Source: a virus (taxonomy: Duplodnaviria > Heunggongvirae > Uroviricota > Caudoviricetes). Taken from it: a DNA stretch of 45,417 nt. A model generated the notes under the pieces. The model had not been told where the DNA came from and did no database searches. It saw nothing but the letters and a program-made list of their open reading frames with translations. Below, piece after piece: positions 1 to 43,915 of this stretch. Made by a program: the position numbers and the translations under genes. The DNA lies in the IMG/VR virus record IMGVR_UViG_2675903468_000006. One strand, written 5' to 3'. The first letter of the stretch is position 1, and every line of letters starts with the position of its first letter.

Positions 1-675
1 ATGTGTGGACGTTTCTCACAATCAATGACCCGCGATGACTATCTGGCTCTGCTGGCTGATGAATCCGATCGCGATATTCCCTATGACCCTGAACCAATCG
101 GGCGATTCAACGTGGCGCCAGGTACCAAAGTCCTGCTGCTGAGCGAGCGCGACGAGCAACTGCATCTGGATCCGGTATTCTGGGGATATGCGCCCGAATG
201 GTGGGATAAACCTCCGCTGATTAATGCGCGCGTTGAGACTGCGGCCACCAGCAGAATGTTCAAGCCCCTGTGGCAGCATGGCCGGGCTATCGTGTTTGCG
301 GATGGTTGGTTTGAGTGGAAGAAGGAAGGCGACAAGAAGCAGCCATATTTCATTCACCGGGACGACGGACAGCCGATATTCATGGCGGCGATCGGCAGCA
401 TACCGTTCGAACGCGGAGATGATGCCGAGGGATTCCTGATTGTGACGTCAGCAGCTGATAAGGGACTGGTAGACATTCACGACCGTCGCCCTCTCGTCCT
501 GTCGCCTGAAGCTGCGCGAGAATGGATGCGACAGGATATAGGCGGGAAGGAAGCCGGAGAGATAGCAGACGACGGGGCGGTGCCGGCAGATAAATTTATC
601 TGGCACGCCGTGACACGCGCCGTTGGCAATGTGAAAAATCAGGGACCTGAGATGATCGAGCCAGTCATGGATTAA
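1..675 (+). CDS. yedK: SOS response-associated peptidase (SRAP/YedK family, abasic-site processing)
   Basis: N-terminus MCGRF with Cys2, about 224 aa, overall SRAP-like sequence. Confidence 0.8.
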   Translation: MCGRFSQSMTRDDYLALLADESDRDIPYDPEPIGRFNVAPGTKVLLLSERDEQLHLDPVFWGYAPEWWDKPPLINARVETAATSRMFKPLWQHGRAIVFADGWFEWKKEGDKKQPYFIHRDDGQPIFMAAIGSIPFERGDDAEGFLIVTSAADKGLVDIHDRRPLVLSPEAAREWMRQDIGGKEAGEIADDGAVPADKFIWHAVTRAVGNVKNQGPEMIEPVMD

Positions 676-1043
676 ATCGTCGGGTAGCTATCATCGCTCA
701 ACGCCCGGTTGATGAAGTACGTTACACGACCAATCACTTCCACCTCTTCCAGCGCGCTCCCCTCTATCGCCTCGCCATCTTCAGATATCAGTGCTTTACC
801 TGCCAGTTTTACAAACTGCACTTCACCACCAGCAAGAACGGCGAGTGTATCTCCCTGTCGCGCATTCAGCGACACGTCGATAACCGCGTATCCCTCTGAC
901 GTTTCCAGGATTCGACTATTCATTGATATCCCGCAAAACATATCGACTGTTAAGCGCCTTGAAAGATAATCAGCAGCCGGTGATGGAAATCCCATGTCAT
1001 AGCCCTCCGTTAGGGTTATAGAGCATGAACAAACGCTCCTCAC
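672..1043 (-). CDS. UmuD-like S24 peptidase (LexA/UmuD autoproteolytic family)
   Basis: GFPSPAADY motif as in UmuD, then GISM (cf. GDSM Ser) and downstream Lys; stop overlaps yedK stop on the opposite strand. Confidence 0.55.
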   Translation of the reverse strand: MRSVCSCSITLTEGYDMGFPSPAADYLSRRLTVDMFCGISMNSRILETSEGYAVIDVSLNARQGDTLAVLAGGEVQFVKLAGKALISEDGEAIEGSALEEVEVIGRVTYFINRALSDDSYPTI

Positions 1044-1278
1044 CTTCCGTAGGGGAAATATCCTTGAACGTGCTTATGCTGGCCTCTATCCATGCATTTG
1101 CATCCCGCAAGGAGAAATCCCAGTTCACCTTTTTCAGTTCCCGCACAAAATCAACTGTTCGTAGTGTCCTGCGACCGCTGGGCTCAACAACTACAGCAGA
1201 CCTAAATGCGGCCTCAATGTCATAACGACGCGGCATAAGCCCTCCACACAAAATACTGTTCATATATACAGTATTCAT
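997..1278 (-). CDS. Hypothetical protein upstream of and overlapping the UmuD-like gene
   Basis: 93-aa ORF overlapping the next gene by 47 nt in another frame; no recognisable domain. Confidence 0.3.
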   Translation of the reverse strand: MNTVYMNSILCGGLMPRRYDIEAAFRSAVVVEPSGRRTLRTVDFVRELKKVNWDFSLRDANAWIEASISTFKDISPTEGEERLFMLYNPNGGL

Positions 1279-1525
1279 TCATGATGGATACAGATCAAGC
1301 ACTGTTGGACAGGCATCTATTAACTTGTTGTTTTATTTGTGTATATAGTTATAAGTATGGAAATGTACTGAACTCATAGACCGTATTGTCGGTTATGAAT
1401 GTTCTTGATGACATTCATGTGGTGATAACTTTGAGTGTTCATAAGTGGACAAAATAATATAAAATCTCTATATTGCAATAACAAAATATATACACCAACA
1501 ATATAATTAGAAAGGCTTAACAATA

Positions 1526-2587
1526 ATGTTAAAACAGCGAAATTTAGGAATTGAGGCTCTAAGGATTTTTAGCTTCATAATGGTAGTTACTATACACACA
1601 GCTCCTGAATACAGTATTGGTGGAAATAATAATATTACTGCGTTAATATTGCAGTCGTTATCAAGGGGTGGATTTATATGCTTTTTTATTATAAGTGGAT
1701 ACTTTGCCCTTAACGATAACATTAAAGACATTAAGAAATACTACTATAATAAGATGATAACTATAGTTTTCCCATTTATTATATATGCTTATATACACTA
1801 CTTCATGGTTCATAATAATTTCGGCACATCATTAGAATTATGGAAGAATTTCATTTCTTTTGATGAACTAAAATCTTTTGTTAACGCGATCATGATTGGT
1901 CCATCTTTCAATGGTCCAAAGTTCATGTCTCTGCATTTCTGGTTTGTATACTGGATAGTCGGAGCATTTATTGTTTCTCCTTTCATTGCGTACATAGTAA
2001 ACCTTATACCTTCAGAAAAAAGGATGAGTGCAATATTTGTTTTAATCTCCTTAAATATGTTCCACTTGTACATAACGCGATATATCCCAAAGGCGAACAT
2101 TATATTCTTACCTTACATTGTTAATGGTTGGTTTTTGTATTTTCTAATTGGTGGCTTATTGAATGGCATTAAAGTGACGAATCCAATTAAAACATCAATG
2201 CTTATGTTCATGTCTGGTTATATTCTTACCATCATAATAACTGTATTAAATTATAATGTATTAGGCATTAAAAAAATGCCATACGGCGAAGATATTAATA
2301 TGATATTAATGGCTACAGGTCTATTTATTATGTTTTATAATTCTAACATTAAATGGCCAGCTAGTTTAACTCTGGTAATATCACGACATTCATACTCAAT
2401 GTATTTATGCCACGTATTTATACTTTATTTTATTTCAGGTTTACTGAAGCCAGTGACTGACATCTATTTTATAAATATAATATTTAAAATATTAACAGTT
2501 TCAATACTGTCGTTCATTTTTGCTTACTTGGTTGACACATTTATAGTATTTAAAGCAACCAGATTTTTTAAACAACTATACAAATAA
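1526..2587 (+). CDS. Acyltransferase-3 family membrane protein (OafA/Oac-like O-antigen O-acetyltransferase)
   Basis: Multi-pass hydrophobic 353-aa protein; N-terminal R...H motif (EALRIF...TIHTAP); strongly AT-rich; SD agaaagg. Confidence 0.75.
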   Translation: MLKQRNLGIEALRIFSFIMVVTIHTAPEYSIGGNNNITALILQSLSRGGFICFFIISGYFALNDNIKDIKKYYYNKMITIVFPFIIYAYIHYFMVHNNFGTSLELWKNFISFDELKSFVNAIMIGPSFNGPKFMSLHFWFVYWIVGAFIVSPFIAYIVNLIPSEKRMSAIFVLISLNMFHLYITRYIPKANIIFLPYIVNGWFLYFLIGGLLNGIKVTNPIKTSMLMFMSGYILTIIITVLNYNVLGIKKMPYGEDINMILMATGLFIMFYNSNIKWPASLTLVISRHSYSMYLCHVFILYFISGLLKPVTDIYFINIIFKILTVSILSFIFAYLVDTFIVFKATRFFKQLYK

Positions 2588-2595
2588 GAACTATC

Positions 2596-2632
2596 TACTC
2601 GCCAACTCCATCCAGTGAAGTTGGCGAGTTAT
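2596..2632. terminator. Hairpin between convergent acyltransferase and tailspike genes, T-run on plus strand
   Basis: About 10-bp inverted repeat CTCGCCAACT...AGTTGGCGAG followed by ttatttatt. Confidence 0.5.
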
Positions 2633-4759
2633 TTATTGAAGGTATCCTTTTTTGTTTTTCAGCATACGTGTCAGTGCTTCAGCCCACGCAGCCATGATAC
2701 TAATTTGTCCATCAACTGTTGGGTGAATGTTATCCCCATACCAACCAAGATTAGCCCCAAAATTCCTGCGCATATCAGCAAATTCATAGCCATTCTGGAT
2801 GCAAAACTTTTTCAATGCATGAGTATACTTTGCATGTGCAGCATAGTTTGAAGTGGTAACACCGTGAATGCCACTATTTGCCTCGGTAGTAAATATGGGG
2901 AAAATGCCGAACACAGGAATTGCACCAGCGGAAACTATTTTATTAGCGATTGTCTGCAGGTTAGTCGTGTACTGTGCTACAGCCACGCCACCCTGCTGAT
3001 CATTAGTTCCGATCATGCACAGAACTACTTTATGAGGCGAGTAATCAGTGGGCGAACCGTCTCCAGTAGCCCAATACGCTGAACTGGTTCCGCTGACAGC
3101 ATAGTTGGTGATACTTACTTTACCAATATTATCTGAGTTTTGAATAAATGATGGTAACAATCTAACTATGTCATTACTACACCAAGCTCCATAACTAATT
3201 GAGTCGCCGATAACACCGATACTTAGAGGCCGCTTAACTCTTAGTTTAAAATTTGTTGTTTTCAGACAATCAAGGAATGTTACACCTGCAGCATCACCTG
3301 CCTGAGATAATATAAAACCAGCATTAACAACAGTCCCATTGAATCTGTACACAGGCAATCCATTTAGTACAAATGTCATAACAGAATCGTTTACAACGAA
3401 CCCTAGGTTTACCTGCTGATTACTAATCCAGCCATATGCGCCACCATTTGGCAATGTGTATTCTTCATTTATTGTTTGTGAACCTGAGAAATTAAATCCT
3501 TTAACAGACAGTTTCCCTGATGCTACAGTTATTGAAGCAAAAACAACGGCACTTGATGTTTTTATAAAAACACCGCATGACTCAGCCTGTCCACTTGTAA
3601 ACGCATTAATCTCATAAAGAGATCCATTCTCTGGCGCTGTTGGATATAGAACTTGCGGGTTTGCTGCGAAATCAGATGACCACGTCACAGTGTTTGATGT
3701 TACGGTTCCTGTCCCTGATGCGCTAATGTCTCCTGTTGAAACATTATAGATGGTCTGATTCCAGGTTGTAAGATTCACAATAGAAGCCGACTCATTGAGC
3801 GACATATTAACTAAACCAGGAGCAACATTGTACAACTCCTTCAAGTCAATAAATGTATTTGCTGGCTTAATTAAAGTTGTTCCGCTTACAGGATTTTCAA
3901 TTCTTAAATTAGTTAATAAGCGTAAATCTTTCGTGTTAGGATTTTCGTCAACTTTAAAGGTCACTCCCTCATCGGCATGGATTTTAACTCCAGACAGATC
4001 AGGTCTTGCCCCTGAATAAAGTACGACACCAGCTCCTGAGAAATATAAAACCTCGTCTTTAGCGGACAGATAGTTACGGGCGTTATTAAATTGCGTTACC
4101 CCGTCATTAAACCCATCATATTTAATACCCCATTGGCGAGCCTCCTTTGGAGTTTCAGCTTCTACGTACAGGCCGTTAGAAATGACGAAAATGCTACCAC
4201 CATCCTCGGTCGCTGAGCCGCTATGTACTACACCGTAATTACCACCACCATCACCAACGGAGTAATAACCAAGCCATCTGACATGATCACCTTCCTTTAG
4301 ATTACCTGATCTCATATCAGAAACCGTCTGAAATACCCGAGAATACTGGTCGTTTAGGTATCCGTTGTTCAGGTCTGATCGTAGAGAAGCATCACCGACT
4401 CCAACCCACGCCCCCGGCCCTACACCGCCAGTTGAGTCTGGCGTTGAACCAGGGGGGACTACTTTGGGGAATTCACCATCCCATCTGTAGTATTCCCCGT
4501 TACTCTCCCAGCGCAGGCACTCGTTAACAAGGCTAATGGTGCTGCCAGCTTCAAAAGAATCCTTCGTGATATAGCCATAATTCACTATTGCCTGATTTGC
4601 ATCGTAATTAATACCGGCAATTGTACGATGCTCATCGCCAAATCTGTCAACATAAACATGGTCTTCCGAGGTCACGAACTCATCAATCTTTCCGGCGTTA
4701 AACTTCAGATCGCGTGGTGATTCGCTTGGGACAGACAAATTGGTAGGTTGCGTAGCCAT
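2633..4759 (-). CDS. Tailspike/tail fibre with C-terminal SGNH (GDSL) esterase domain
   Basis: C-terminal GDSISYG, GTND and DNIHPT blocks; fibre-like N-terminus; last gene of tail operon; AT-richer than upstream tail genes. Confidence 0.75.
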   Translation of the reverse strand: MATQPTNLSVPSESPRDLKFNAGKIDEFVTSEDHVYVDRFGDEHRTIAGINYDANQAIVNYGYITKDSFEAGSTISLVNECLRWESNGEYYRWDGEFPKVVPPGSTPDSTGGVGPGAWVGVGDASLRSDLNNGYLNDQYSRVFQTVSDMRSGNLKEGDHVRWLGYYSVGDGGGNYGVVHSGSATEDGGSIFVISNGLYVEAETPKEARQWGIKYDGFNDGVTQFNNARNYLSAKDEVLYFSGAGVVLYSGARPDLSGVKIHADEGVTFKVDENPNTKDLRLLTNLRIENPVSGTTLIKPANTFIDLKELYNVAPGLVNMSLNESASIVNLTTWNQTIYNVSTGDISASGTGTVTSNTVTWSSDFAANPQVLYPTAPENGSLYEINAFTSGQAESCGVFIKTSSAVVFASITVASGKLSVKGFNFSGSQTINEEYTLPNGGAYGWISNQQVNLGFVVNDSVMTFVLNGLPVYRFNGTVVNAGFILSQAGDAAGVTFLDCLKTTNFKLRVKRPLSIGVIGDSISYGAWCSNDIVRLLPSFIQNSDNIGKVSITNYAVSGTSSAYWATGDGSPTDYSPHKVVLCMIGTNDQQGGVAVAQYTTNLQTIANKIVSAGAIPVFGIFPIFTTEANSGIHGVTTSNYAAHAKYTHALKKFCIQNGYEFADMRRNFGANLGWYGDNIHPTVDGQISIMAAWAEALTRMLKNKKGYLQ

Positions 4760-23784: not shown

Positions 23785-24003
23785 TTACTCCGTTGTTTGT
23801 CCTGCTGGCTGTTCGGTCTGCTCTGCCGGTACTGGCGTAAACTGCACGCGCTTCACATCGGCCGGAGCGAAATAAAGCCACTCGCCCGTCTCTGTCGCCA
23901 GCGGCACAAAGCCATTAACCAACTCAGGCTGACGTCGTGACATCTTGCCCGTGAAGGTTTCGCCTGTTTGAGTGGTTAGCGTGATTTGGTAGATGTCGGA
24001 CAT
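23785..24003 (-). CDS. Hypothetical small protein upstream of terminase
   Basis: Start set at MSDIYQ; terminator hairpin just upstream. Confidence 0.4.
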   Translation of the reverse strand: MSDIYQITLTTQTGETFTGKMSRRQPELVNGFVPLATETGEWLYFAPADVKRVQFTPVPAEQTEQPAGQTTE

Positions 24004-24023
24004 GAAGACCCTCACAAGCCACT

Positions 24024-24057
24024 GTTGAAGAAAATGCCATCAGCATGGTGATGGCAT
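24024..24057 (-). terminator. Intrinsic terminator after the R-x4-H moron
   Basis: Minus-strand 9-bp stem ATGCCATCA...TGATGGCAT followed by TTTTCTT. Confidence 0.5.
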
Positions 24058-24080
24058 TACAATTCAATAATATGGCTGTA

Positions 24081-24662
24081 TTATTTTGCAGTTTTGTATT
24101 CAATAAACCCGTCAAAAATCAGACTATCGATGGTCATCATTTTCGTAAGTTTTTCCATAACCTCAGGATTTTCTTGCATATCAACAAGCCATCTCCTCAC
24201 GCCATTAGCTATATCATTACATAACTCAATAACATCTAATTGCAGAACACCATTAAAAGCATTCATATGTGCATGAAGGTTTTCTCGCGCAGGGGTCGTT
24301 ATCTTAAACTTCCTTAGCTTCGTTTCATCAACGCCTTCATGCAAACATGCATTCCTTAAACTCCAACAGTCTTCTGCAGTGAATGAGACTACGGGTTTTT
24401 GCGCCCTTAAGCTTTGCTTTATTCCTTCAGGCATGCTCTGAACCATTGCAGGGCTGGTGAGACTTAAATAGTCATACATGTTATCAGCGTTATATCTTGG
24501 CTTAAGATAGCGATTAAACCAGTCCTTGTACCTCGCGCCATTTCCTTTGATTTTATCCTCTGTCGCGCCACAGATGTCAGGAAGTGATATTGCTATGAAT
24601 AAAGCACCAAACCAATTCTTTTTAGACAAGCAATCATCTATTCCACTCAGCAACTGTTGCAT
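24081..24662 (-). CDS. Moron protein with R-x4-H (HEPN-like) motif; possible abortive-infection/defence candidate
   Basis: AT-rich; ATG at 24662 with SD AAGGTG; RNACLH motif; alternative GTG start at 24743 gives a lipobox-like LIVASGC N-terminus. Confidence 0.5.
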   Translation of the reverse strand: MQQLLSGIDDCLSKKNWFGALFIAISLPDICGATEDKIKGNGARYKDWFNRYLKPRYNADNMYDYLSLTSPAMVQSMPEGIKQSLRAQKPVVSFTAEDCWSLRNACLHEGVDETKLRKFKITTPARENLHAHMNAFNGVLQLDVIELCNDIANGVRRWLVDMQENPEVMEKLTKMMTIDSLIFDGFIEYKTAK

Positions 24663-24730
24663 ATATGAGCACCTTATTTTGTTGTAGACAGAGCCTACAA
24701 TACAACCAGATGCAACTATTAAGAAAACCT

Positions 24731-25192
24731 TTACTTCAAGCACTGAGTGCTTAGATATTCCTGAAGATAGCCAACCTGCTTCATCACTGTGGCGATTCTT
24801 TCTCTGAGGGTGAAATAATCCCGTTCAGCGGAGTCAGTAAGTCGGGGGCCGGAAGCATCGCCCATGCCGCTGGAGCCGGTCGTTCCGTTCGCGGGACAGT
24901 TTGCGTTGAGCTGCAGCCGCTTACGGCCAGCAATGACATCGCTATGCAGACGCTCAATGGTTTCTTTCGCATCAGCTAGTTCTCCGGTGTATTTGGCATC
25001 CAGTGCAGCGACATCACGCTGGCGGGCCTGCATGTCTTTTATGGTGGTGTTAGCCAGGCTGAGTTTCTCAGTGGCTTTATCGCGCTGGTCTTTATAAGCG
25101 ATGGCGTTGTCGCGGTAGTGGTTAATCGCCCAGGCCATGGAAACGAGCAGGCAGATAACGACAGCACAGATGATTGCTGTTAATCGGCTCAT
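24731..25192 (-). CDS. Rz: Rz i-spanin
   Basis: N-terminal TM segment then coiled coil; ATG overlaps endolysin stop; Rz1 embedded. Confidence 0.7.
24784..24972 (-). CDS. Rz1: Rz1 o-spanin lipoprotein embedded in Rz
   Basis: Signal peptide with lipobox LAVSGC, Pro-rich mature part, +1 frame inside Rz. Confidence 0.7.
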
Positions 25193-25683
25193 TTCTGGCC
25201 CCACTCGCAAACTTCGCGCTCAATCTCGCGCCGGGTTATCAGTCCCTTCCACTGCTTGCCACCGGCATACGTCCAGCGTTGCAGTTCTTTGCATGCCCCC
25301 GGCACGTCTCCGGCGTTCAGCTTCTTCAGCAGCGTCGAGCTGGCAAAAGCACCAGAGCCAACGTTATAGGTGAAGGAGTAAAGCGCGGCGCGGGTTGGCT
25401 CAGGAATGCGAACCTTGATCAGCGGGTCGATAGCATTTGCCACCTTTCGCAGATCGGCCTTCAGCATGTTGTCGCACTCTTTGTCGGTGTATCGGTGACC
25501 GCGGCGAATGTCCGCTCCGGTGTGCCCATCGCAAACAGTCCAGACGCCGACCACATCCTGATAGGCGTAATAGCGCCGTCCTTCCAGCCCATCGGCATTG
25601 CCCAGCATTACTGCAGCAATGGTGATGGCTCCGGATCCGCCAACAATGGCACCCACCAGCTTATTCCTCAACGTTGGGTTCAT
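25189..25683 (-). CDS. SAR endolysin (T4-lysozyme-type, GH24)
   Basis: N-terminal Gly/Ala-rich SAR segment [20 protein letters not shown]; lysozyme-like core. Confidence 0.85.
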
Positions 25684-26064: not shown

Positions 26065-26140
26065 TGGTGCTGATTGACGGAGTTGAACCGCCGACATCCT
26101 GCTTACAAGGCAGGCGCTCTACCTACTGAGCTAAATCAGC
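26065..26140 (-). tRNA. tRNA-Thr (anticodon UGU), phage-borne
   Basis: 76-nt cloverleaf folded by hand: 7-bp acceptor stem, D-arm, anticodon loop CUUGUAA, T-loop TTCAACT, encoded CCA. Confidence 0.8.
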
Positions 26141-28970: not shown

Positions 28971-29149
28971 ACGGCCTCCTTAACGGAAACCGCAGAATGC
29001 AGAAAATCGCAGGTGCATTTCTGCATCTGTGACAATGTGAGGAGTTCAGATTGTGGTCGCATTTAAGTCCCCTTAAATGCGCAGAAGTCACCAATGGGTG
29101 TTCAGACCATCAGCAAAGAAAGTATGGACGGTTGATTCAACAAAATCAA

Positions 29150-29176
29150 CTGAAGAGAAAGGCCTCCGGAGAGGCC
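29150..29176 (-). terminator. Intrinsic terminator after the Cys-rich moron
   Basis: GGCCTC-CGGA-GAGGCC hairpin, T-rich tract on minus strand. Confidence 0.5.
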
Positions 29177-29182
29177 AATGAG

Positions 29183-29464
29183 TTAGTCGTCCACGCGTTT
29201 AAAGCACTGCGGGCAAACATCATTTCCACCGTGTTCTTCGTATGCGCTTTTAACAGCATCAGTCATCTCTTTAAAGCTTTCGAATAGATGACTACCGTTG
29301 CTTTTTTTATAAGCTCCGGCTGCGTATTTGTAGATGTCGGACTCTTCTATGCCCTCATCAACATAAGTGCCCTCATGATGAGGGCACTGCGTTAAAGCGC
29401 CAACCCTACCAAGCATCTCCAATGCCCAACACTCTTGTTTCATGCAAAGTTGATCGATACTCAT
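29183..29464 (-). CDS. Cys-rich small protein (possible zinc-binding), moron
   Basis: Start at MSIDQL with SD AGGAGG; AT-rich; CxxxxC, CPHH and CPQC clusters; own terminator. Confidence 0.45.
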   Translation of the reverse strand: MSIDQLCMKQECWALEMLGRVGALTQCPHHEGTYVDEGIEESDIYKYAAGAYKKSNGSHLFESFKEMTDAVKSAYEEHGGNDVCPQCFKRVDD

Positions 29465-29730
29465 AACGCCTCCTGTTGGTTTTACATCGCCAAATGAATG
29501 TACCACCATGCAAGAGGAAATGAAGCAGTTAAATTGTAAAACATGTGTATATATCAATGAGTTAAAATAGTTTGCTATTTTTCTTACAGCCTTGCTGCGT
29601 CGAATGGGTTAGGCATGGCGACCTCTACACGAGCTGAAAATATAAGCCGCTACAGCCAAATCCTGAATTGCTGTTATTGCCAGCATCCAACCATAAATGC
29701 TGTCATTGAAATGCCACGCCAGCGCTGTAA

Positions 29731-29946
29731 TCACGGCTTCACCTCCTTAGCCGTTTTGACGATTGCAGCGAGGCACTTCTTGCATGGAACCTGCAATGAA
29801 CCCTGCTCAATGCTCAACAGTGCATGCTGAGCGTCCTGAAACAACCAGTCAGAAAATTGAGGCTTATGTCCGCACCATGTTTCTGTTTCATGCTTCGCAA
29901 GTTTTACGCCGTCACGATAGTCATATTTGATGATGTGATTACTCAC
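29731..29946 (-). CDS. Hypothetical protein
   Basis: 71-aa ORF overlapping the Lar-like stop. Confidence 0.4.
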   Translation of the reverse strand: MSNHIIKYDYRDGVKLAKHETETWCGHKPQFSDWLFQDAQHALLSIEQGSLQVPCKKCLAAIVKTAKEVKP

Positions 29947-30242
29947 GGCTGTACCTCCTGCTGCGGTGCTGCAATTAGTTCTAGCGTGAAGCCGTCTTGC
30001 TTAAGACTATCAATGTAAGCCGCAGTTCTCCTGCGCTCGCCAGCACATGCCAGCGTTTCTGGGTCGTAAAACCACACCTTCATTCGGCTATTCCATGCAG
30101 AAATTGCTTCAGCCTTATTGCGCTTTAATGGCCCATGAGCACCACATTTGCAGTGGACGTAGCGCTTCTTTCCCATAATACTGAATGAGTAGCCAATACC
30201 AAGCGCTGTCGATTCGCAAAATGGGCAGAGTAGTGGAGTCAT
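29943..30242 (-). CDS. lar: Lar-family restriction alleviation protein
   Basis: N-terminal CPFC...CKCG zinc-ribbon arrangement, about 99 aa. Confidence 0.55.
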   Translation of the reverse strand: MTPLLCPFCESTALGIGYSFSIMGKKRYVHCKCGAHGPLKRNKAEAISAWNSRMKVWFYDPETLACAGERRRTAAYIDSLKQDGFTLELIAAPQQEVQP

Positions 30243-30943
30243 TTATCCTCCTGCTGAGGTGCTGCTGAAGATGCAAAAATATCAATCAGCGTATCTTCTC
30301 CCATGCTATTGCAATGAGCCTGAAGCCTATTGATGATTGCCTGAAGAGCAAACTTCGGAACCATATTTTCCTTACCTATCTGCGGGCAGTTTTCGGTACC
30401 GAACCAAAATTGCTCGATCTGCAGCAGCAGACCATTTTTGCCTTCAGTTGCACTGAATACGCCGAACGCTTCAATGTCGTATGCTTTCGCAATCACAGGA
30501 GAGTTGCCATCGGCACCCTGAAGCATGGCGGCGCGGCGCTCCCAGTCAGCTATTGCGGCTGAATGTTCCATCGAGTCGTCGCCAAACTCAGCATGTGCGC
30601 ACTCGTCTGCCGCATTGGCGGCAGTTTTCGCAATCGTCAAGAGATCTGACAGGAGCGAATCAGATATCGGTGCTGGCGGGGCGGTGTAAAGCGGCTCACA
30701 TTCCCAGCCTTGCTTTTGCCAGGATGCCAGGACATTTTTTGAATCTGTCAGAAGGCCGTGATTCTCGTAATAAAGCGATCGCCACGCCACAGGATCCGCT
30801 TCGAGAGATGCCAGCGCGATACGAAACACCTCTGCAGTCATGCTGCGAGGCGACTGATTGTCATGCGCTGGGTCGGTAAGGAAGCCAGTAATAAACGCCT
30901 TCAATTGCTGATTGTGAATATCGCGTTTGTCGATGTTGCTCAT
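30239..30943 (-). CDS. Hypothetical protein
   Basis: Start set at ATG after SD GGAGGA; the track's longer start is a TTG inside the SD. Confidence 0.45.
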   Translation of the reverse strand: MSNIDKRDIHNQQLKAFITGFLTDPAHDNQSPRSMTAEVFRIALASLEADPVAWRSLYYENHGLLTDSKNVLASWQKQGWECEPLYTAPPAPISDSLLSDLLTIAKTAANAADECAHAEFGDDSMEHSAAIADWERRAAMLQGADGNSPVIAKAYDIEAFGVFSATEGKNGLLLQIEQFWFGTENCPQIGKENMVPKFALQAIINRLQAHCNSMGEDTLIDIFASSAAPQQEDK

Positions 30944-31587
30944 TGGGCGGTCCTCCAACCTTCACATTCAATGTCACTGCAGCCATCGAAATCGTATGGA
31001 TTTAGCTGCCAGCTAATCTTTCCGCAGCAAGGGCAATTCCAGCGAACCTTACCGCTGCGTGATTTTTTTCGGTTGTGCTTTTTCAGCCACTCAGGCATGA
31101 CAAGCCCTGCCGCCTGAACCATGGTGCGTCGGTTAAACTCATTGATGCTGAACGTGCGGCGCTTAGCCTTGTCAGCTAAAGCAAAAGGAATCCAGACAAT
31201 GCCAGGCTCTGCCGTGTTGGCGGATACAAAAACGAATGCCTTACTGAAGTCGTCAGTTGGAAGGCCTCCATGTTGCAACCAGTACACATCGTTACCGTTC
31301 CAACTGCCTTTTTTGTAGGCCACATAGGACTCACAGCCAGGCTCAATAACACTTTCGGTAGGTATGTACTGACAATCGACATGCCAGACAGCCATGGAAT
31401 CAACACTGTCAGCGCAAACCGGCTGATCAATCTCTCTACCCAATTCCCAGCTTCTTTGAGCTTCTTCACGGGTGTACACGTGGGCGCGGTCTATATTGGA
31501 GCTATATCCGTTGCCGTTGTGGCAGTGGAATGACGCGTTACTGCCAACCGTTTCGCGAGTACAAAGCATGTAAAATCTATCGCTCAT
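30940..31587 (-). CDS. Hypothetical protein with C-terminal Cys cluster
   Basis: 215 aa; NCPCCG...C.IEC at the C-terminus. Confidence 0.45.
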   Translation of the reverse strand: MSDRFYMLCTRETVGSNASFHCHNGNGYSSNIDRAHVYTREEAQRSWELGREIDQPVCADSVDSMAVWHVDCQYIPTESVIEPGCESYVAYKKGSWNGNDVYWLQHGGLPTDDFSKAFVFVSANTAEPGIVWIPFALADKAKRRTFSINEFNRRTMVQAAGLVMPEWLKKHNRKKSRSGKVRWNCPCCGKISWQLNPYDFDGCSDIECEGWRTAQ

Positions 31588-32018
31588 GACTGCACTCCTT
31601 TGCGAAGCTCGTCGGCGAAGTTCTCAGCATCTGCGGCCATGCCAGCAGCCTCTTCAGACATCCTCATGCTTCGGCTACGCAGAGCCTGCTGTCGTTCTCG
31701 CTTATGTGCGGCAAACATCTCCACACCCTGCGCCCGCACTTCAGCCAGGAAAGCGTCGGTGGCTGGGGTTTTGACCTTATTCGCAGCGAACTCAATTTTT
31801 TCTTTCGTGTCTCTGCCGATTTCGCTTGAGCCCAACTTTCCGATGAAGCTAACGATTTGGTCAGGGAACTGCTTCAGCCCCGCATTCTCCGCAGCCAGCG
31901 CAGCGAATGTGGTTTCAAACACGTTAAGCAGAGTCGTAACTTCTGCCGGTGACATGTGCTCACCACATTCTGCATTCACCCTGGCGTTTTTAATCAGATC
32001 TTCGTATTTGTTGCTCAT
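31584..32018 (-). CDS. Hypothetical protein
   Basis: Start set at MSNKYEDL, adjacent to upstream stop. Confidence 0.45.
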   Translation of the reverse strand: MSNKYEDLIKNARVNAECGEHMSPAEVTTLLNVFETTFAALAAENAGLKQFPDQIVSFIGKLGSSEIGRDTKEKIEFAANKVKTPATDAFLAEVRAQGVEMFAAHKRERQQALRSRSMRMSEEAAGMAADAENFADELRKGVQS

Positions 32019-32314
32019 ACCCCTACCCTCCCCCAAACCATCAATACTCGCTTCATCGCCGCGCTGTTGCGGCACTCCTGAAATATTCCGTTGGTGCAGC
32101 TGCGCGCGGTACCATCTTGCTCTTCCGGCGTCGCCAGGCGGTAAGTCACCGTTCGCCAGACCTTGCTCACGCGCACAATCTTCCTGGCCCGCTCCAGATC
32201 GATAGCGTTCTTGGTGATGCAGTTGATGGTCATGACGCACTCTGTGGCCACATCCTTCGCAGTGAAGGTCCGGTGCGTTTCGAGATAACGCAGAATTGCC
32301 TGTTTGCCTTTCAT
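32015..32314 (-). CDS. Hypothetical small protein (possible winged-helix)
   Basis: 99 aa immediately downstream of helicase. Confidence 0.35.
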   Translation of the reverse strand: MKGKQAILRYLETHRTFTAKDVATECVMTINCITKNAIDLERARKIVRVSKVWRTVTYRLATPEEQDGTARSCTNGIFQECRNSAAMKRVLMVWGRVGV

Positions 32315-42733: not shown

Positions 42734-42823
42734 ACAGCATCAGCGCATCGCCGTGTGGCGGGTGACATCCCGCCAAATAACGACGATCAACTGAACATCA
42801 ACACATTATATGTACATACGACC

Positions 42824-43915
42824 ATGAACATTCAGATCAAAACACTATCTGTCCGAATTAAAGACAAGCACGCAGCCGTTTTGCGGCAGATGGCCTTTGA
42901 GGTCAATCAGATCTTTAATCTGGCAAACGAGATAACCAGCGCAGCATACGGCAACGCTGGCTTTTTTGGCGCGCAAAAACCGCAATGGCTATCGGCGTTT
43001 GATGTTCAGAAACCGCTCCTTAAAGAGCGAAAAGAGCGCGGGTATACCATCCCCAGCCATACCGTACAGGAAATCGCAGCAATTCACGGCAAGGCACGGA
43101 AGCAATTTAAACGCTCTCGCTTACGCTGGCGAGTCAGTGGGGGATCTCGCCGTTCGTTGGGTTGGGTGCCGTTTAAAATAGGCAGCGCTGTCTGGAAAAA
43201 TGGCGCGGTGCGGTTCGCTGGCAGGATTTTTAATGTCTGGGATAGCTACGGCTTGGGAGGATTTAAATTCCGTGCTGGAAGCTTTTCAGAAGACAGCCGT
43301 GGACGCTGGTACTTCAATGTTTGCGTAGAGGTCGAAACTGTCCCATCAACGGCCACTTCCGCCGTGGGTATCGATTTAGGGCTGAAAGACTACGCCACCC
43401 CGTCAGAAGGTGATCCGCTGATTGCCGGTAGATTCTATCGAGATCTGGAGCCTGCATTAGGAAAGGCACAGCGTGCAAACAAAAAAGCCCGTGTACGCGC
43501 CATACACGCCAAAATTAAGAACCGCCGCAAAGATGCCCTGCACAAGTACAGCACGGCGCTGGTTAACAGCCATGCGGCAATATTCGTAGGCGACGCGAGC
43601 AGTAAGAAACTGGTTAAAACCAAAATGGCAAAAAGCATTTTGGACGCTGGCTGGTTCATGCTCAAAACACAACTGGAATATAAAGCGATTGCGCGGTCAG
43701 TGGTGTTTGAAGTGGTCAACGAAAGTTATTCCACCCAAGCTTGTTCGTGTTGCGGGGCTATCTCCGCCAACAGTCCGAAAGGTAGAGCAGGCCTGCGAAT
43801 AAGAGAATGGACTTGTTGTGAGTGCGGAACCACTCATGACCGCGACGTGAACGCCGCAAAGAACATTCTCGCGGCGGGGCATCGCCGTCTAGCTGTAGGA
43901 ATCCCCTTCCTTTAG
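42824..43915 (+). CDS. tnpB: TnpB (IS200/IS605 OrfB; RuvC-like RNA-guided nuclease family)
   Basis: RuvC-I GIDLGLKDYAT, zinc ribbon CSCCG...CCECG, RuvC-III HDRDVNAAKNI. Confidence 0.85.
   Translation: MNIQIKTLSVRIKDKHAAVLRQMAFEVNQIFNLANEITSAAYGNAGFFGAQKPQWLSAFDVQKPLLKERKERGYTIPSHTVQEIAAIHGKARKQFKRSRLRWRVSGGSRRSLGWVPFKIGSAVWKNGAVRFAGRIFNVWDSYGLGGFKFRAGSFSEDSRGRWYFNVCVEVETVPSTATSAVGIDLGLKDYATPSEGDPLIAGRFYRDLEPALGKAQRANKKARVRAIHAKIKNRRKDALHKYSTALVNSHAAIFVGDASSKKLVKTKMAKSILDAGWFMLKTQLEYKAIARSVVFEVVNESYSTQACSCCGAISANSPKGRAGLRIREWTCCECGTTHDRDVNAAKNILAAGHRRLAVGIPFL

Follow-up and report, generated by a model that had tools for sequence, protein, structure and literature searches.

The window analyzed here, a 45,417-nucleotide stretch of DNA from a tailed virus (IMG/VR record IMGVR_UViG_2675903468_000006), contains a gene for a cytoplasmic, mostly helical protein of 193 amino acids that belongs to the HEPN superfamily. 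The predicted active site of this protein is intact, with D29 in helix 2 and R103 and H108 at the end of helix 3. The gene is carried on a 727-bp AT-rich cassette, a piece of horizontally mobile cargo situated in a lambdoid prophage, with the spanin gene Rz on one side and the packaging genes on the other. The family to which the protein belongs is large, has no name in any curated library, and has no dedicated partner gene. An abortive-infection or toxin-type role is suggested by analogy and genomic context; with somewhat better than even confidence, we infer that the protein is a solo HEPN RNase that functions as a trigger-activated abortive-infection effector in the manner of HepS and Tha, which belong to other families.

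The coding sequence, as defined by the ORF listing and the sequence itself, occupies 24081..24662 (−), stop codon included; the ATG lies at 24662-24660 and is followed by 193 codons and a TAA at 24083-24081. The RefSeq entry for the identical gene (WP_047658998.1) has the same dimensions, 582 nt and a 193-aa product. A Shine-Dalgarno-like AAGGTG at 24670..24675 (−) is read 7 nt 5′ of the ATG and is retained in the 82%-identical relative at locus L007. The original prediction had named this ATG and this Shine-Dalgarno sequence, and both stand; its length of 194 amino acids, which includes the stop codon, is corrected to 193. Homologs are ~190–193 amino acids long and start with the same initiating methionine, which is aligned at position 1 in 94% of 115 sequences.

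It had also been proposed that translation might begin at an upstream GTG (24743), adding a lipobox-like sequence (LIVASGC) that would convert the product into a Bor-like lipoprotein. The GTG-initiated frame is open within the window and ASGC is present, but the homologs begin at the ATG, and a signal peptide and lipobox at the conserved N-terminus were rejected on finding that, at homologous loci, the upstream frame either is closed or bears no relation to this extension. In L007, which encodes an 89%-identical protein, a stop codon immediately precedes the ATG; in L009, L010, L011, L019, L020, and L023 (47–65% identical), the upstream frame is short or unrelated. Moreover, GTG 24743 overlaps the 3′ end of Rz, the hydrophobic stretch of the extension comprises only ~6 residues, and the RefSeq gene call of 193 amino acids argues against the GTG start. 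The lipoprotein reading is already refuted by this comparison and retains virtually no probability.

The predicted catalytic center of the protein is the motif RNACLH (R103-N-A-C-L-H108; 24339..24356 (−)). An R-x4-H motif by itself is unremarkable because 13% of shuffled versions of the window protein contain one; it is raised above chance by its invariance across the family. R103, H108, and a third residue, D29 (codon 24576..24578 (−), within PDICG), are the only invariant columns among 115 homologs, most of which share ~25–40% identity, and R-x4-H is found in 172 of 174 fetched relatives. Near-invariant cysteines and histidines are C31, H132, C148, and, in most members, C104; the residue that follows the arginine is N104 in the window protein, whereas it is cysteine in 82% of the family and asparagine in most others.

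HEPN domains are defined as four-helix bundles in which R-x4-6-H occupies the end of core helix 3 and the start of the next loop, with a polar residue (N/D/H) directly after the arginine, an insert separating helix 2 from helix 3, and a conserved acid in helix 2 (PMC3710099). Metal-independent RNase activity and a composite active site built by dimerization also belong to the definition (PMC3710099). Two single-chain structure models of the window protein, the second built from 115 sequences (pLDDT 94.8), have the same topology, and each structural feature of the definition can be located in them. The protein is modeled as an up-and-down bundle of four helices that resembles solved HEPN domains. 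Acidic D29 lies in core helix 2, which spans residues 17–35 in both models; helix 3 spans residues 96–106 in the first model or 96–109 in the second, such that R103 lies inside the helix and H108 at or just past its end. Residues 41–87 form the insert, a set of short variable helices between these two, and polar N104 follows the arginine.

A fold search with the predicted structure returned HEPN domains almost exclusively and no confident non-HEPN fold. Together with the invariance of R103 and H108, this bears out the earlier reading of the R-x4-H motif as HEPN-like and the conservation of the two residues on which that reading was to be judged. Fold-search scores were modest. Foldseek found no significant match in the PDB and, in BFVD, only two uncharacterized phage proteins. 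PDB sequence searches with two family profiles retrieved no relative, and hhalign comparisons of the family profile with one DUF4145 and one Abi_2 sequence were not significant. No curated HEPN profile in Pfam or NCBIfam matches the window protein or any of its 115 relatives, and membership in the superfamily therefore rests on fold and motif; such a lack of curated matches is expected of a new family.

The statement in the original prediction that no family could be recognized agrees with our searches, in which we found neither a Pfam, NCBIfam, or PADLOC model nor a solved structure for the family. The window protein matched nothing in these three libraries apart from one sub-threshold Pfam line (Anticodon_1, E 0.019), and PHROGs returned only phrog_18591, labeled 'unknown function'. 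When the 115 relatives were compared with curated libraries, no HEPN family was found, only scattered chance matches and a weak signal to DzbB that is discussed below. All named family members are labeled 'hypothetical protein'. Nonetheless, the family comprises 1,899 clusters at 50% identity and ranges from Proteobacteria to phages that infect Actinobacteria.

Most relatives are found in temperate phages, at accessory positions. The slot after Rz is used again in lambdoid prophages of Klebsiella and Enterobacter, with different terminases, and the relative in phage ECP1 is likewise in a post-lysis position; another lies directly before terS, and one in a Firmicutes-type phage sits in the gap between tail and lysis genes. 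Other positions include a site after the integrase (Acinetobacter phage TCUAN1), an integrase-proximal leftward block (Gordonia phage Bowser), and the early region of a Pseudomonas prophage, in reverse orientation. A scan of species-representative genomes yielded 4 loci. Relatives outside phages adjoin other HEPN/Abi genes, DUF4145 at one locus and Abi_2 at another, an observation limited to these two loci. Fusions to TPR repeats, a typical sensor module, occur in some members. No neighbor or partner gene is conserved across the loci examined, and neither the window cassette nor related loci contain a gene for a minimal nucleotidyltransferase antitoxin.

The cassette occupies 24006..24732 (−) and consists of a 68-nt upstream spacer, the gene, and a terminator. 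GC content is 0.395 in the ORF and 0.392 in the cassette as a whole, compared with 0.526 for the entire window and 0.56 and 0.53 in the two 5-kb flanks. The borders are given by comparison with the prophages of E. coli XJ5.2 and M37H, to which homology ends at 24733 and restarts at 24005/24013; these prophages lack the HEPN gene and have a 69-aa ORF in its place. Only 1 of 5,426 complete E. coli genomes contains the cassette, while the flanks are found in 3,538. A 5.3-kb Q-lysis block that includes the HEPN gene is 99.7% identical between two prophages that are otherwise 83–90% identical. Thus base composition, a terminator, and presence or absence among related prophages all agree with the original description of an AT-rich moron between the lysis cassette and terminase.

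The upstream neighbor, outside the cassette, is Rz (24731..25210 (−); PF03245 Phage_lysis, E 9.5e-43), the last gene of the lysis cassette, whose counterpart in an E. coli relative is annotated 'lysis protein'. An Rz1-like ORF is embedded within it (24784-24972), and genes for lysozyme and holin lie 5′ of it. The downstream neighbor is a GC-rich backbone ORF of 72 amino acids (23785..24003 (−)) that has no Pfam match and no assigned function. We considered this ORF as a dedicated partner and rejected it because prophages without the HEPN gene carry it as well. Beyond it are a 216-aa ORF resembling the small terminase subunit and then the large terminase.

Twenty-three nucleotides past the stop codon is an intrinsic-terminator-like hairpin with a U-rich tail (24026..24058 (−)). 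Its 10-bp stem and 6-nt loop (24058-24033) are followed by UUUCUUC, and the RNA folds with an energy of -17 kcal/mol (z = -3.0). The stem is kept in L007 with a different loop, and the claim that the gene has its own terminator is thereby upheld, even though a simple consensus terminator scan did not call the hairpin. The search for a sigma-70 promoter upstream of the gene gave best candidates of only 7/12, and the two promoter-like sites found compare with 1.8 expected by chance. A partly conserved upstream stretch, TTGTATTGTAG, moves with the gene between cassette types. The window also encodes a phage tRNA-Thr(UGU), which recurs at L019 and L023, 2 of the 8 further HEPN-bearing loci that were scanned, and is absent from L007, L009, L011, L031, L032, and L035; the tRNA also occurs in a prophage without the HEPN gene, and we found no link between the two.

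In its overall design the cassette resembles lambdoid morons of the type described by Hendrix, such as bor and lom of lambda. Like them, it is a discrete unit of deviant base composition that ends in its own terminator, is placed between blocks of late genes, and is carried by some prophages but missing from others that are otherwise alike. It differs from bor, which encodes a lipoprotein on the opposite strand, in that its product is cytoplasmic and nuclease-like, its gene shares the strand of the late genes, and no promoter could be assigned to it.

How might such a protein act? According to the model we favor, the HEPN protein would be an RNase that needs no metal and by default does no harm, probably through an oligomer in which the R-x4-H motifs are buried or misaligned. 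A product of an infecting phage would switch the protein on, after which it would cut tRNA or mRNA and bring translation to a stop. The infected cell would be arrested and the rival phage would not spread, an outcome amounting to abortive infection or superinfection exclusion that would benefit both the lysogen and the resident prophage. Experiments have demonstrated the same logic for two solo HEPN proteins of prophages, HepS of Gifsy-1 and Tha of 80alpha, both members of other HEPN families. Several observations weigh against the model. The window protein has no curated HEPN or PADLOC match, and 82% of family members carry cysteine, rather than the usual N/D/H, after the arginine. An association with defense islands is seen at just two loci outside phages. 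In addition, the gene may be made mainly in lytic growth, given its late-operon orientation and the lack of a promoter above 7/12; such expression would suit a defense role less well than expression in the lysogen.

This last point leads to a different reading, in which the protein is a late-expressed RNase that serves the lytic cycle of the phage itself and not the lysogen. Read-through transcription from the Q-dependent late promoter would cover its gene as well as the lysis genes, and the protein would degrade RNA of the host or a competitor, or else cyclic-oligonucleotide defense signals as a form of counter-defense; cleavage of cyclic oligoadenylates is known for the HEPN domains of some Csm6 proteins. 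The gene is co-oriented with the late operon, begins 68 nt past Rz with no intervening terminator and no convincing promoter of its own, and lies within the nearly identical Q-lysis block shared by two prophages. Close and some distant relatives recurrently adjoin lysis or packaging genes as well. However, other relatives sit where genes are classically expressed in the lysogen, either past the integrase or within early regions in reverse orientation, and some are found outside phages beside Abi-type genes. The cassette also has its own terminator, as do morons expressed from the prophage, and an unregulated RNase produced alongside the late mRNAs would harm the phage's own expression. We consider a lytic-cycle RNase unlikely.

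The protein could instead be the toxin half of an addiction or toxin-antitoxin-like module whose antidote would be, for example, an antisense RNA, the product of a small ORF, or that of a backbone gene. Against such a module, promoter-like sites are no more frequent than chance predicts, the 72-aa ORF also occurs in prophages without the HEPN gene, and no MNT or other neighbor is conserved across loci. Furthermore, the solo HEPN proteins HepS and Tha are non-toxic without an antitoxin in cells that carry only the defense gene (PMC13043305, PMC11087260). We regard a toxin module as very improbable, and the same low standing applies to the notion of a non-catalytic helical regulator or adaptor in which R-x4-H has only a structural or ligand-binding role. 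Several HEPN families do lack catalysis (PMC3710099), the fold-search scores are modest, and C31, H132, C148, and in most members C104 could indicate binding of a metal or ligand. Non-catalytic HEPN families, however, typically lose the arginine or the histidine (PMC3710099), whereas in the window family the only three invariant residues among 193 are precisely R, H, and the acid of helix 2.

The recognition that solo HEPN proteins of prophages can constitute complete sense-and-kill defenses is recent, dating to Tha in 2024 (PMC11087260) and HepS in 2026 (PMC13043305). As a trigger-activated abortive-infection RNase, the window gene would define another solo-HEPN family of this kind, unrelated at the sequence level; the family is far larger than its annotation suggests. 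If the protein is a defense nuclease, current tools for cataloging defense genes overlook the family, and enterobacterial lambdoid prophages gain a recurrent type of cargo at their lysis-terminase hot spot; should it instead be an RNase that the phage expresses late, it would represent a new phage use of HEPN. It is tempting to speculate further, although we give the idea only a slim chance, that the gene is a founding member of a large new solo-HEPN clade (~1,900 clusters at 50% identity) that acts in a manner undescribed for prophage HEPN proteins. The Cys/His-rich surround of the active site (C31, C104/C106, H132, C148) and the late-operon placement could reflect, for example, a lytic-cycle RNase directed against specific tRNAs or cyclic-nucleotide defense signals, whose effects the resident phage would escape through its own tRNA-Thr or through timing, unlike the lysogen-expressed Abi sensor-effectors of the HepS/Tha type.

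Comparison with characterized HEPN proteins places the window protein apart from several groups. HEPN-MNT toxins (HepT/MntA; PDB 5YEP, 7AE2, and 8XDJ) are accompanied by an adjacent nucleotidyltransferase antitoxin, which is missing from the window locus. Relative to these toxins and AF0298 (2HSB), to which it is 6–11% identical, the window protein has a 45-residue helical insert and a β-hairpin insert that carries conserved H132. The Foldseek match to AbiV, a solo HEPN Abi protein of Lactococcus (PDB 9BJ5/9BJ7), was not significant (E 0.8, TM 0.32–0.36). AbiV is typically without the motif histidine and uses an alternative one (PMC3710099); in contrast, R and H are both invariant in the window family.

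A weak sequence link to a validated abortive system may exist through DzbB of Dazbog (PADLOC PDLC03836), the only defense-protein model with repeated matches to the family. Matches came from 8 of the 115 members at E ~1e-3, and none from the window protein itself, either to DzbB or to PADLOC as a whole. In the four hits examined, the alignment falls exactly over the R-x4-H region (DDCYALRCxYxHEG), and model positions 259–328 of 341 are covered. Dazbog is a two-gene abortive-infection system with a DUF262 sensor (DzbA), whereas no DUF262 gene lies near the window locus.

The closest parallels in organization are Tha and HepS. Tha, a tail-activated HEPN anti-phage protein of the S. aureus prophages 80alpha and phiNM2, provides Abi-like defense upon activation by a structural protein of the incoming phage (PMC11087260). 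Both it and the window protein are single HEPN proteins encoded by prophages, and they share the pattern R-N-x3-H (RNSIMH in Tha and RNACLH in the window protein). The two are likened by description. Tha differs in being 301 amino acids long with an N-terminal domain; its gene is located in the lysogeny module, is transcribed from the cI promoter, and comes with an inhibitor, Ith, encoded antisense to it, and nothing comparable was found at the window locus. HepS is a solo HEPN abortive-infection protein of the Salmonella prophage Gifsy-1 (PDB 9OIJ/9OIK) that is activated by the tail-tip protein J of siphophages and cleaves tRNA anticodon loops (PMC13043305). Its homologs are often encoded on prophages and extend from Bacillaceae to Enterobacteriaceae (PMC13043305). 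We detected no sequence or structural homology to HepS (9OIJ/9OIK), and an ORF with R100/H105 for direct comparison was not found in the LT2 Gifsy-1 record; the two proteins are likened indirectly. Like HepS, the window protein is a single HEPN-domain protein of ~200 amino acids whose gene occupies an accessory slot in a lambdoid prophage and is not accompanied by one for a partner or inhibitor, and the positions of the motif are nearly equal, R100/H105 in HepS and R103/H108 in the window protein.

The R-x4-H motif of the HEPN protein (R103-N-A-C-L-H108) is by itself weak evidence for a HEPN fold because 13% of shuffles of the protein contain one. The pattern of conservation among homologues argues far more strongly for the assignment. 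An alignment of 115 diverse members, mostly 25–40% identical to the query, contains only three invariant columns: D29, R103, and H108. Of 174 fetched relatives, 172 retain R-x4-H; the other two are a fragment and a member (P0156) that has lost both R and H (LLQQACLCKD) and carries G in place of D29 (PGVCG for PDICG), while the remaining fold signature is intact. All three predicted catalytic residues are thus gone from P0156, which appears from its sequence to be an inactivated derivative. The published definition of HEPN domains contains four points, including a polar residue after the motif Arg, an insert between helices 2 and 3, and a conserved acid in helix 2 (PMC3710099). The HEPN protein agrees with all four. 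In the models, a predicted helix (residues 17–35) carries D29, residues 41–87 form a variable helical insert, and R103 and N104 reside in a predicted helix (residues 96–106/109) with H108 at its end or just past it. The residue after the motif Arg is Cys, rather than N, D, or H, in 82% of family members. Outside the core, a β-hairpin between helices 3 and 4 bears the nearly invariant H132, and C31 and C148 are also conserved. From predicted fold, topology, and conservation, rather than a match to a curated profile, we conclude that the protein belongs to a new family within the HEPN superfamily and that its predicted active site is intact. The HEPN-like reading of the original prediction is thus supported both by the predicted helix topology and by retention of R and H across homologues; neither of the sequence or fold outcomes named there as refuting it, a confident match to a non-HEPN fold or loss of R/H conservation, was observed.

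Scans of the HEPN protein with Pfam, NCBIfam, and PADLOC yielded no matching model, and PHROGs assigns it to phrog_18591 (“function unknown”). An exhaustive profile search, counted as cluster representatives at 50% identity, retrieved 1,899 representatives at E ≤ 1e-3 and 765 at E ≤ 1e-10. The majority stand alone at 160–200 amino acids; some members have C-terminal TPR repeats, are extended by 135 amino acids at the N-terminus, or end in a long basic tail. Curated HEPN models matched none of the 115 diverse members, none of the 117 proteins in a second search was named or had a Pfam domain, and no chain in the PDB sequence set was related to the family. Named sources include Methylomonas, Nitrospira, Pseudomonas, Dickeya, Treponema endosymbionts, and Armatimonadetes, as well as phages of Acinetobacter, Gordonia, and Arthrobacter. 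A 34%-identical homologue in Escherichia phage ECP1 (L032 4001–4474; KY979108.1 8614–9087) lies where no gene is annotated and looks like a missed gene call.

The HEPN gene extends on the minus strand from an ATG at 24662 to a TAA at 24083–24081, and AAGGTG lies 7 nt 5′ of the ATG. The original prediction had placed the ORF, start codon, and SD sequence correctly; its length of 194 amino acids counted the stop codon, and the protein has 193. The alternative upstream GTG start with a lipobox, and with it the reading of the product as a lipoprotein, is refuted because homologues start at the ATG and their upstream frames are closed, short, or unrelated. Close homologues are all 188–195 amino acids in length with the N-terminus MQQLL or MNQLL, Met occupies position 1 in 94% of the 115 aligned sequences, and the identical gene in RefSeq is a 582-nt CDS (WP_047658998.1). 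In L007, which encodes an 89%-identical protein, a stop codon immediately 5′ of the ATG closes the upstream frame; in the 47–65%-identical relatives, this frame is short or unrelated. The predicted AT-rich island is evident from the GC content of the ORF and its short flanks (0.39), compared with 0.526 for the whole window and 0.56 and 0.53 in the adjoining 5 kb on each side. Beginning 23 nt past the stop codon, a terminator-like hairpin (24058–24033, minus strand) consists of a 10-bp stem followed by UUUCUUC. Its fold energy is −17 kcal/mol (z = −3.0 versus shuffles), and in L007, where the DNA is 82% identical, the stem is preserved and the loop changed. A simple terminator scan left this hairpin unreported.

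The window spans a complete lambdoid prophage, whose right end carries an integrase. Directly 5′ of the HEPN gene is Rz (PF03245, E = 9.5e-43), preceded in turn by lysozyme, holin, tRNA-Thr, and the Q antiterminator; 3′ of the gene lie a 72-amino acid ORF, a 216-amino acid small-terminase-like ORF, and the large terminase, as expected for the proposed slot between lysis cassette and terminase. Homology to E. coli prophages that share these flanks ends at the Rz stop codon (24733) and restarts at 24005/24013, just ahead of the 72-amino acid ORF; an unrelated 69-amino acid ORF occupies the cassette’s place. Of 5,426 complete E. coli genomes, 3,538 have detectable flanks and one has the 727-bp cassette, at 100% identity. 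In this relative, a 5.3-kb block of Q, lysis genes, and cassette is 99.7% identical, whereas structural genes are only 83–90% identical. Database records list the exact HEPN protein on 384 contigs, from E. coli and Enterobacter species, and invariably call it “hypothetical protein”. The cassette behaves as a moron, as originally proposed, in its deviant composition, its own terminator, and presence/absence polymorphism between related prophages.

In lambdoid prophages of Klebsiella, Raoultella, and Enterobacter, which differ in their terminases and downstream genes, close relatives (47–65% identity) likewise lie directly 3′ of Rz. Distant members occur 3′ of the lysis genes in phage ECP1, immediately 5′ of a small terminase gene and, in a Firmicutes-type phage, in the gap separating tail from lysis genes. 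Acinetobacter phage TCUAN1 carries its copy right behind the integrase, the copy of Gordonia phage Bowser belongs to the integrase-proximal leftward block, and a Pseudomonas prophage has the gene in reverse orientation in its early region. Others adjoin a DUF4145 (HEPN) gene in an IS26-flanked segment, reside in an island holding an Abi_2 gene or, in one case, lie between core chromosomal genes with a 71-amino acid gene upstream. The dominant pattern of the family is that of a solo accessory gene of temperate phages. On two independent contigs from one distant subfamily, a 71-amino acid gene (L046 6732–6947; L047 168–383) lies 54 nt 5′ of the HEPN homologue and could encode a subfamily-specific partner (regulator or antitoxin).

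The prophage and its E. coli relative (L001) carry other genes of note. An extra, reverse-oriented 170-amino acid gene in L001 (WP_095907981.1; 7563–8075, minus strand; NZ_AP045762.1 2694170–2694682), which has no Pfam match, lies between the 72-amino acid ORF and the small terminase; the window lacks it, so that this site is a second variable slot, only ~300 bp away from the cassette. The L001 nin region encodes an Abi_2-family (also HEPN) “Abi family protein” (317–1213, minus strand). The window at about 29092–32052 is not homologous to that region and holds a lambda ea8.5-related ORF (29183–29557) and a 239-amino acid ORF with no assignment (30239–30958). Inside the prophage, beside its integrase end, a plus-strand gene (42755–43915) encodes a 386-amino acid TnpB/IS605 OrfB-type RNA-guided endonuclease (PF07282, E = 8e-22; PF01385, E = 9e-13); the annotation of the E. 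coli 23CRST004 relative includes this gene. At about 750–3800 the window reaches its highest AT content (GC about 0.30); in this stretch, next to the tail fibre at the end of the prophage, a plus-strand ORF (1526–2587, 353 amino acids) matches Acyl_transf_3 (PF01757, E = 2.7e-28). This ORF is probably an O-antigen-modifying lysogenic-conversion gene, and an acyltransferase gene occupies the corresponding position in the E. coli relative.

The view that the HEPN gene is mobile cargo of the prophage and that its product is a catalytically competent nuclease of the HEPN type is well supported and very probably correct; with the predicted active site intact, a non-catalytic protein is less likely. 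By analogy, we give an even chance, or slightly better, to a role as a trigger-activated abortive-infection effector, because of characterized precedents, the accessory positions in temperate phages, the absence of an antitoxin, sensor-like fusions, and occasional Abi/HEPN neighbors. A toxin-antitoxin-like reading is less likely; no neighbor gene was shared across the examined loci of relatives. The main rival, which we consider improbable, is that the gene serves the phage’s own lytic cycle. The gene lies 3′ of Rz on the strand of the late genes, no terminator separates the two, and a promoter search upstream found none of its own (best candidates 7/12), so that Q-dependent read-through would express it late in any case. 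A short upstream stretch, TTGTATTGTAG, is partly conserved between Enterobacter-type and Klebsiella-type cassettes. Within the window, non-coding CTGrTTGTATTGTAG (24690–24710, minus strand) is kept upstream of the gene in three relatives (L009, L011, and L019) whose proteins are only ~60% identical; this conserved stretch could be a promoter or another regulatory element that escapes consensus scans.

In our view, the finding adds a credible solo-HEPN family, unnamed until now, to a cargo hot spot of lambdoid prophages, but does not constitute a system of a new kind. The family is large yet missed by current annotation and defense-finding resources, which makes it a worthwhile experimental target. 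Its only link to a catalogued defense protein, a weak one at the sequence level, is DzbB of the abortive Dazbog system: the PADLOC model matches 8 of the 115 members at E about 1e-3 and, in the four matches examined, spans exactly the DDCYALRCxYxHEG region and the model’s C-terminal quarter. The second gene of Dazbog encodes a DUF262 sensor, whereas the window locus has no DUF262 gene.

Two experimentally characterized prophage proteins act as proposed for the HEPN protein. [quoted passage not shown] Tha of S. aureus phages (301 amino acids) has a C-terminal HEPN domain (RNSIMH), is activated by minor tail proteins, and is restrained by a phage inhibitor (PMC11087260). Cleavage of tRNA-Thr by HepS-type nucleases (PMC13043305) is the sole interest of the tRNA-Thr (anticodon UGU) at 26065–26140 (minus strand), between the Q antiterminator and holin. 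No association with the HEPN gene is shown, since 2 of the 8 other loci scanned that bear the gene have this tRNA, as does a prophage that lacks the gene. On indirect comparison, the present family is not HepS: searches of the PDB sequence set with the family profiles returned no HepS chain, although 9OIK is included. The HepS entries (9OIJ/9OIK) are absent from the structural match lists of the HEPN protein, and the residues named for HepS (PMC13043305) fail to align with it by number.
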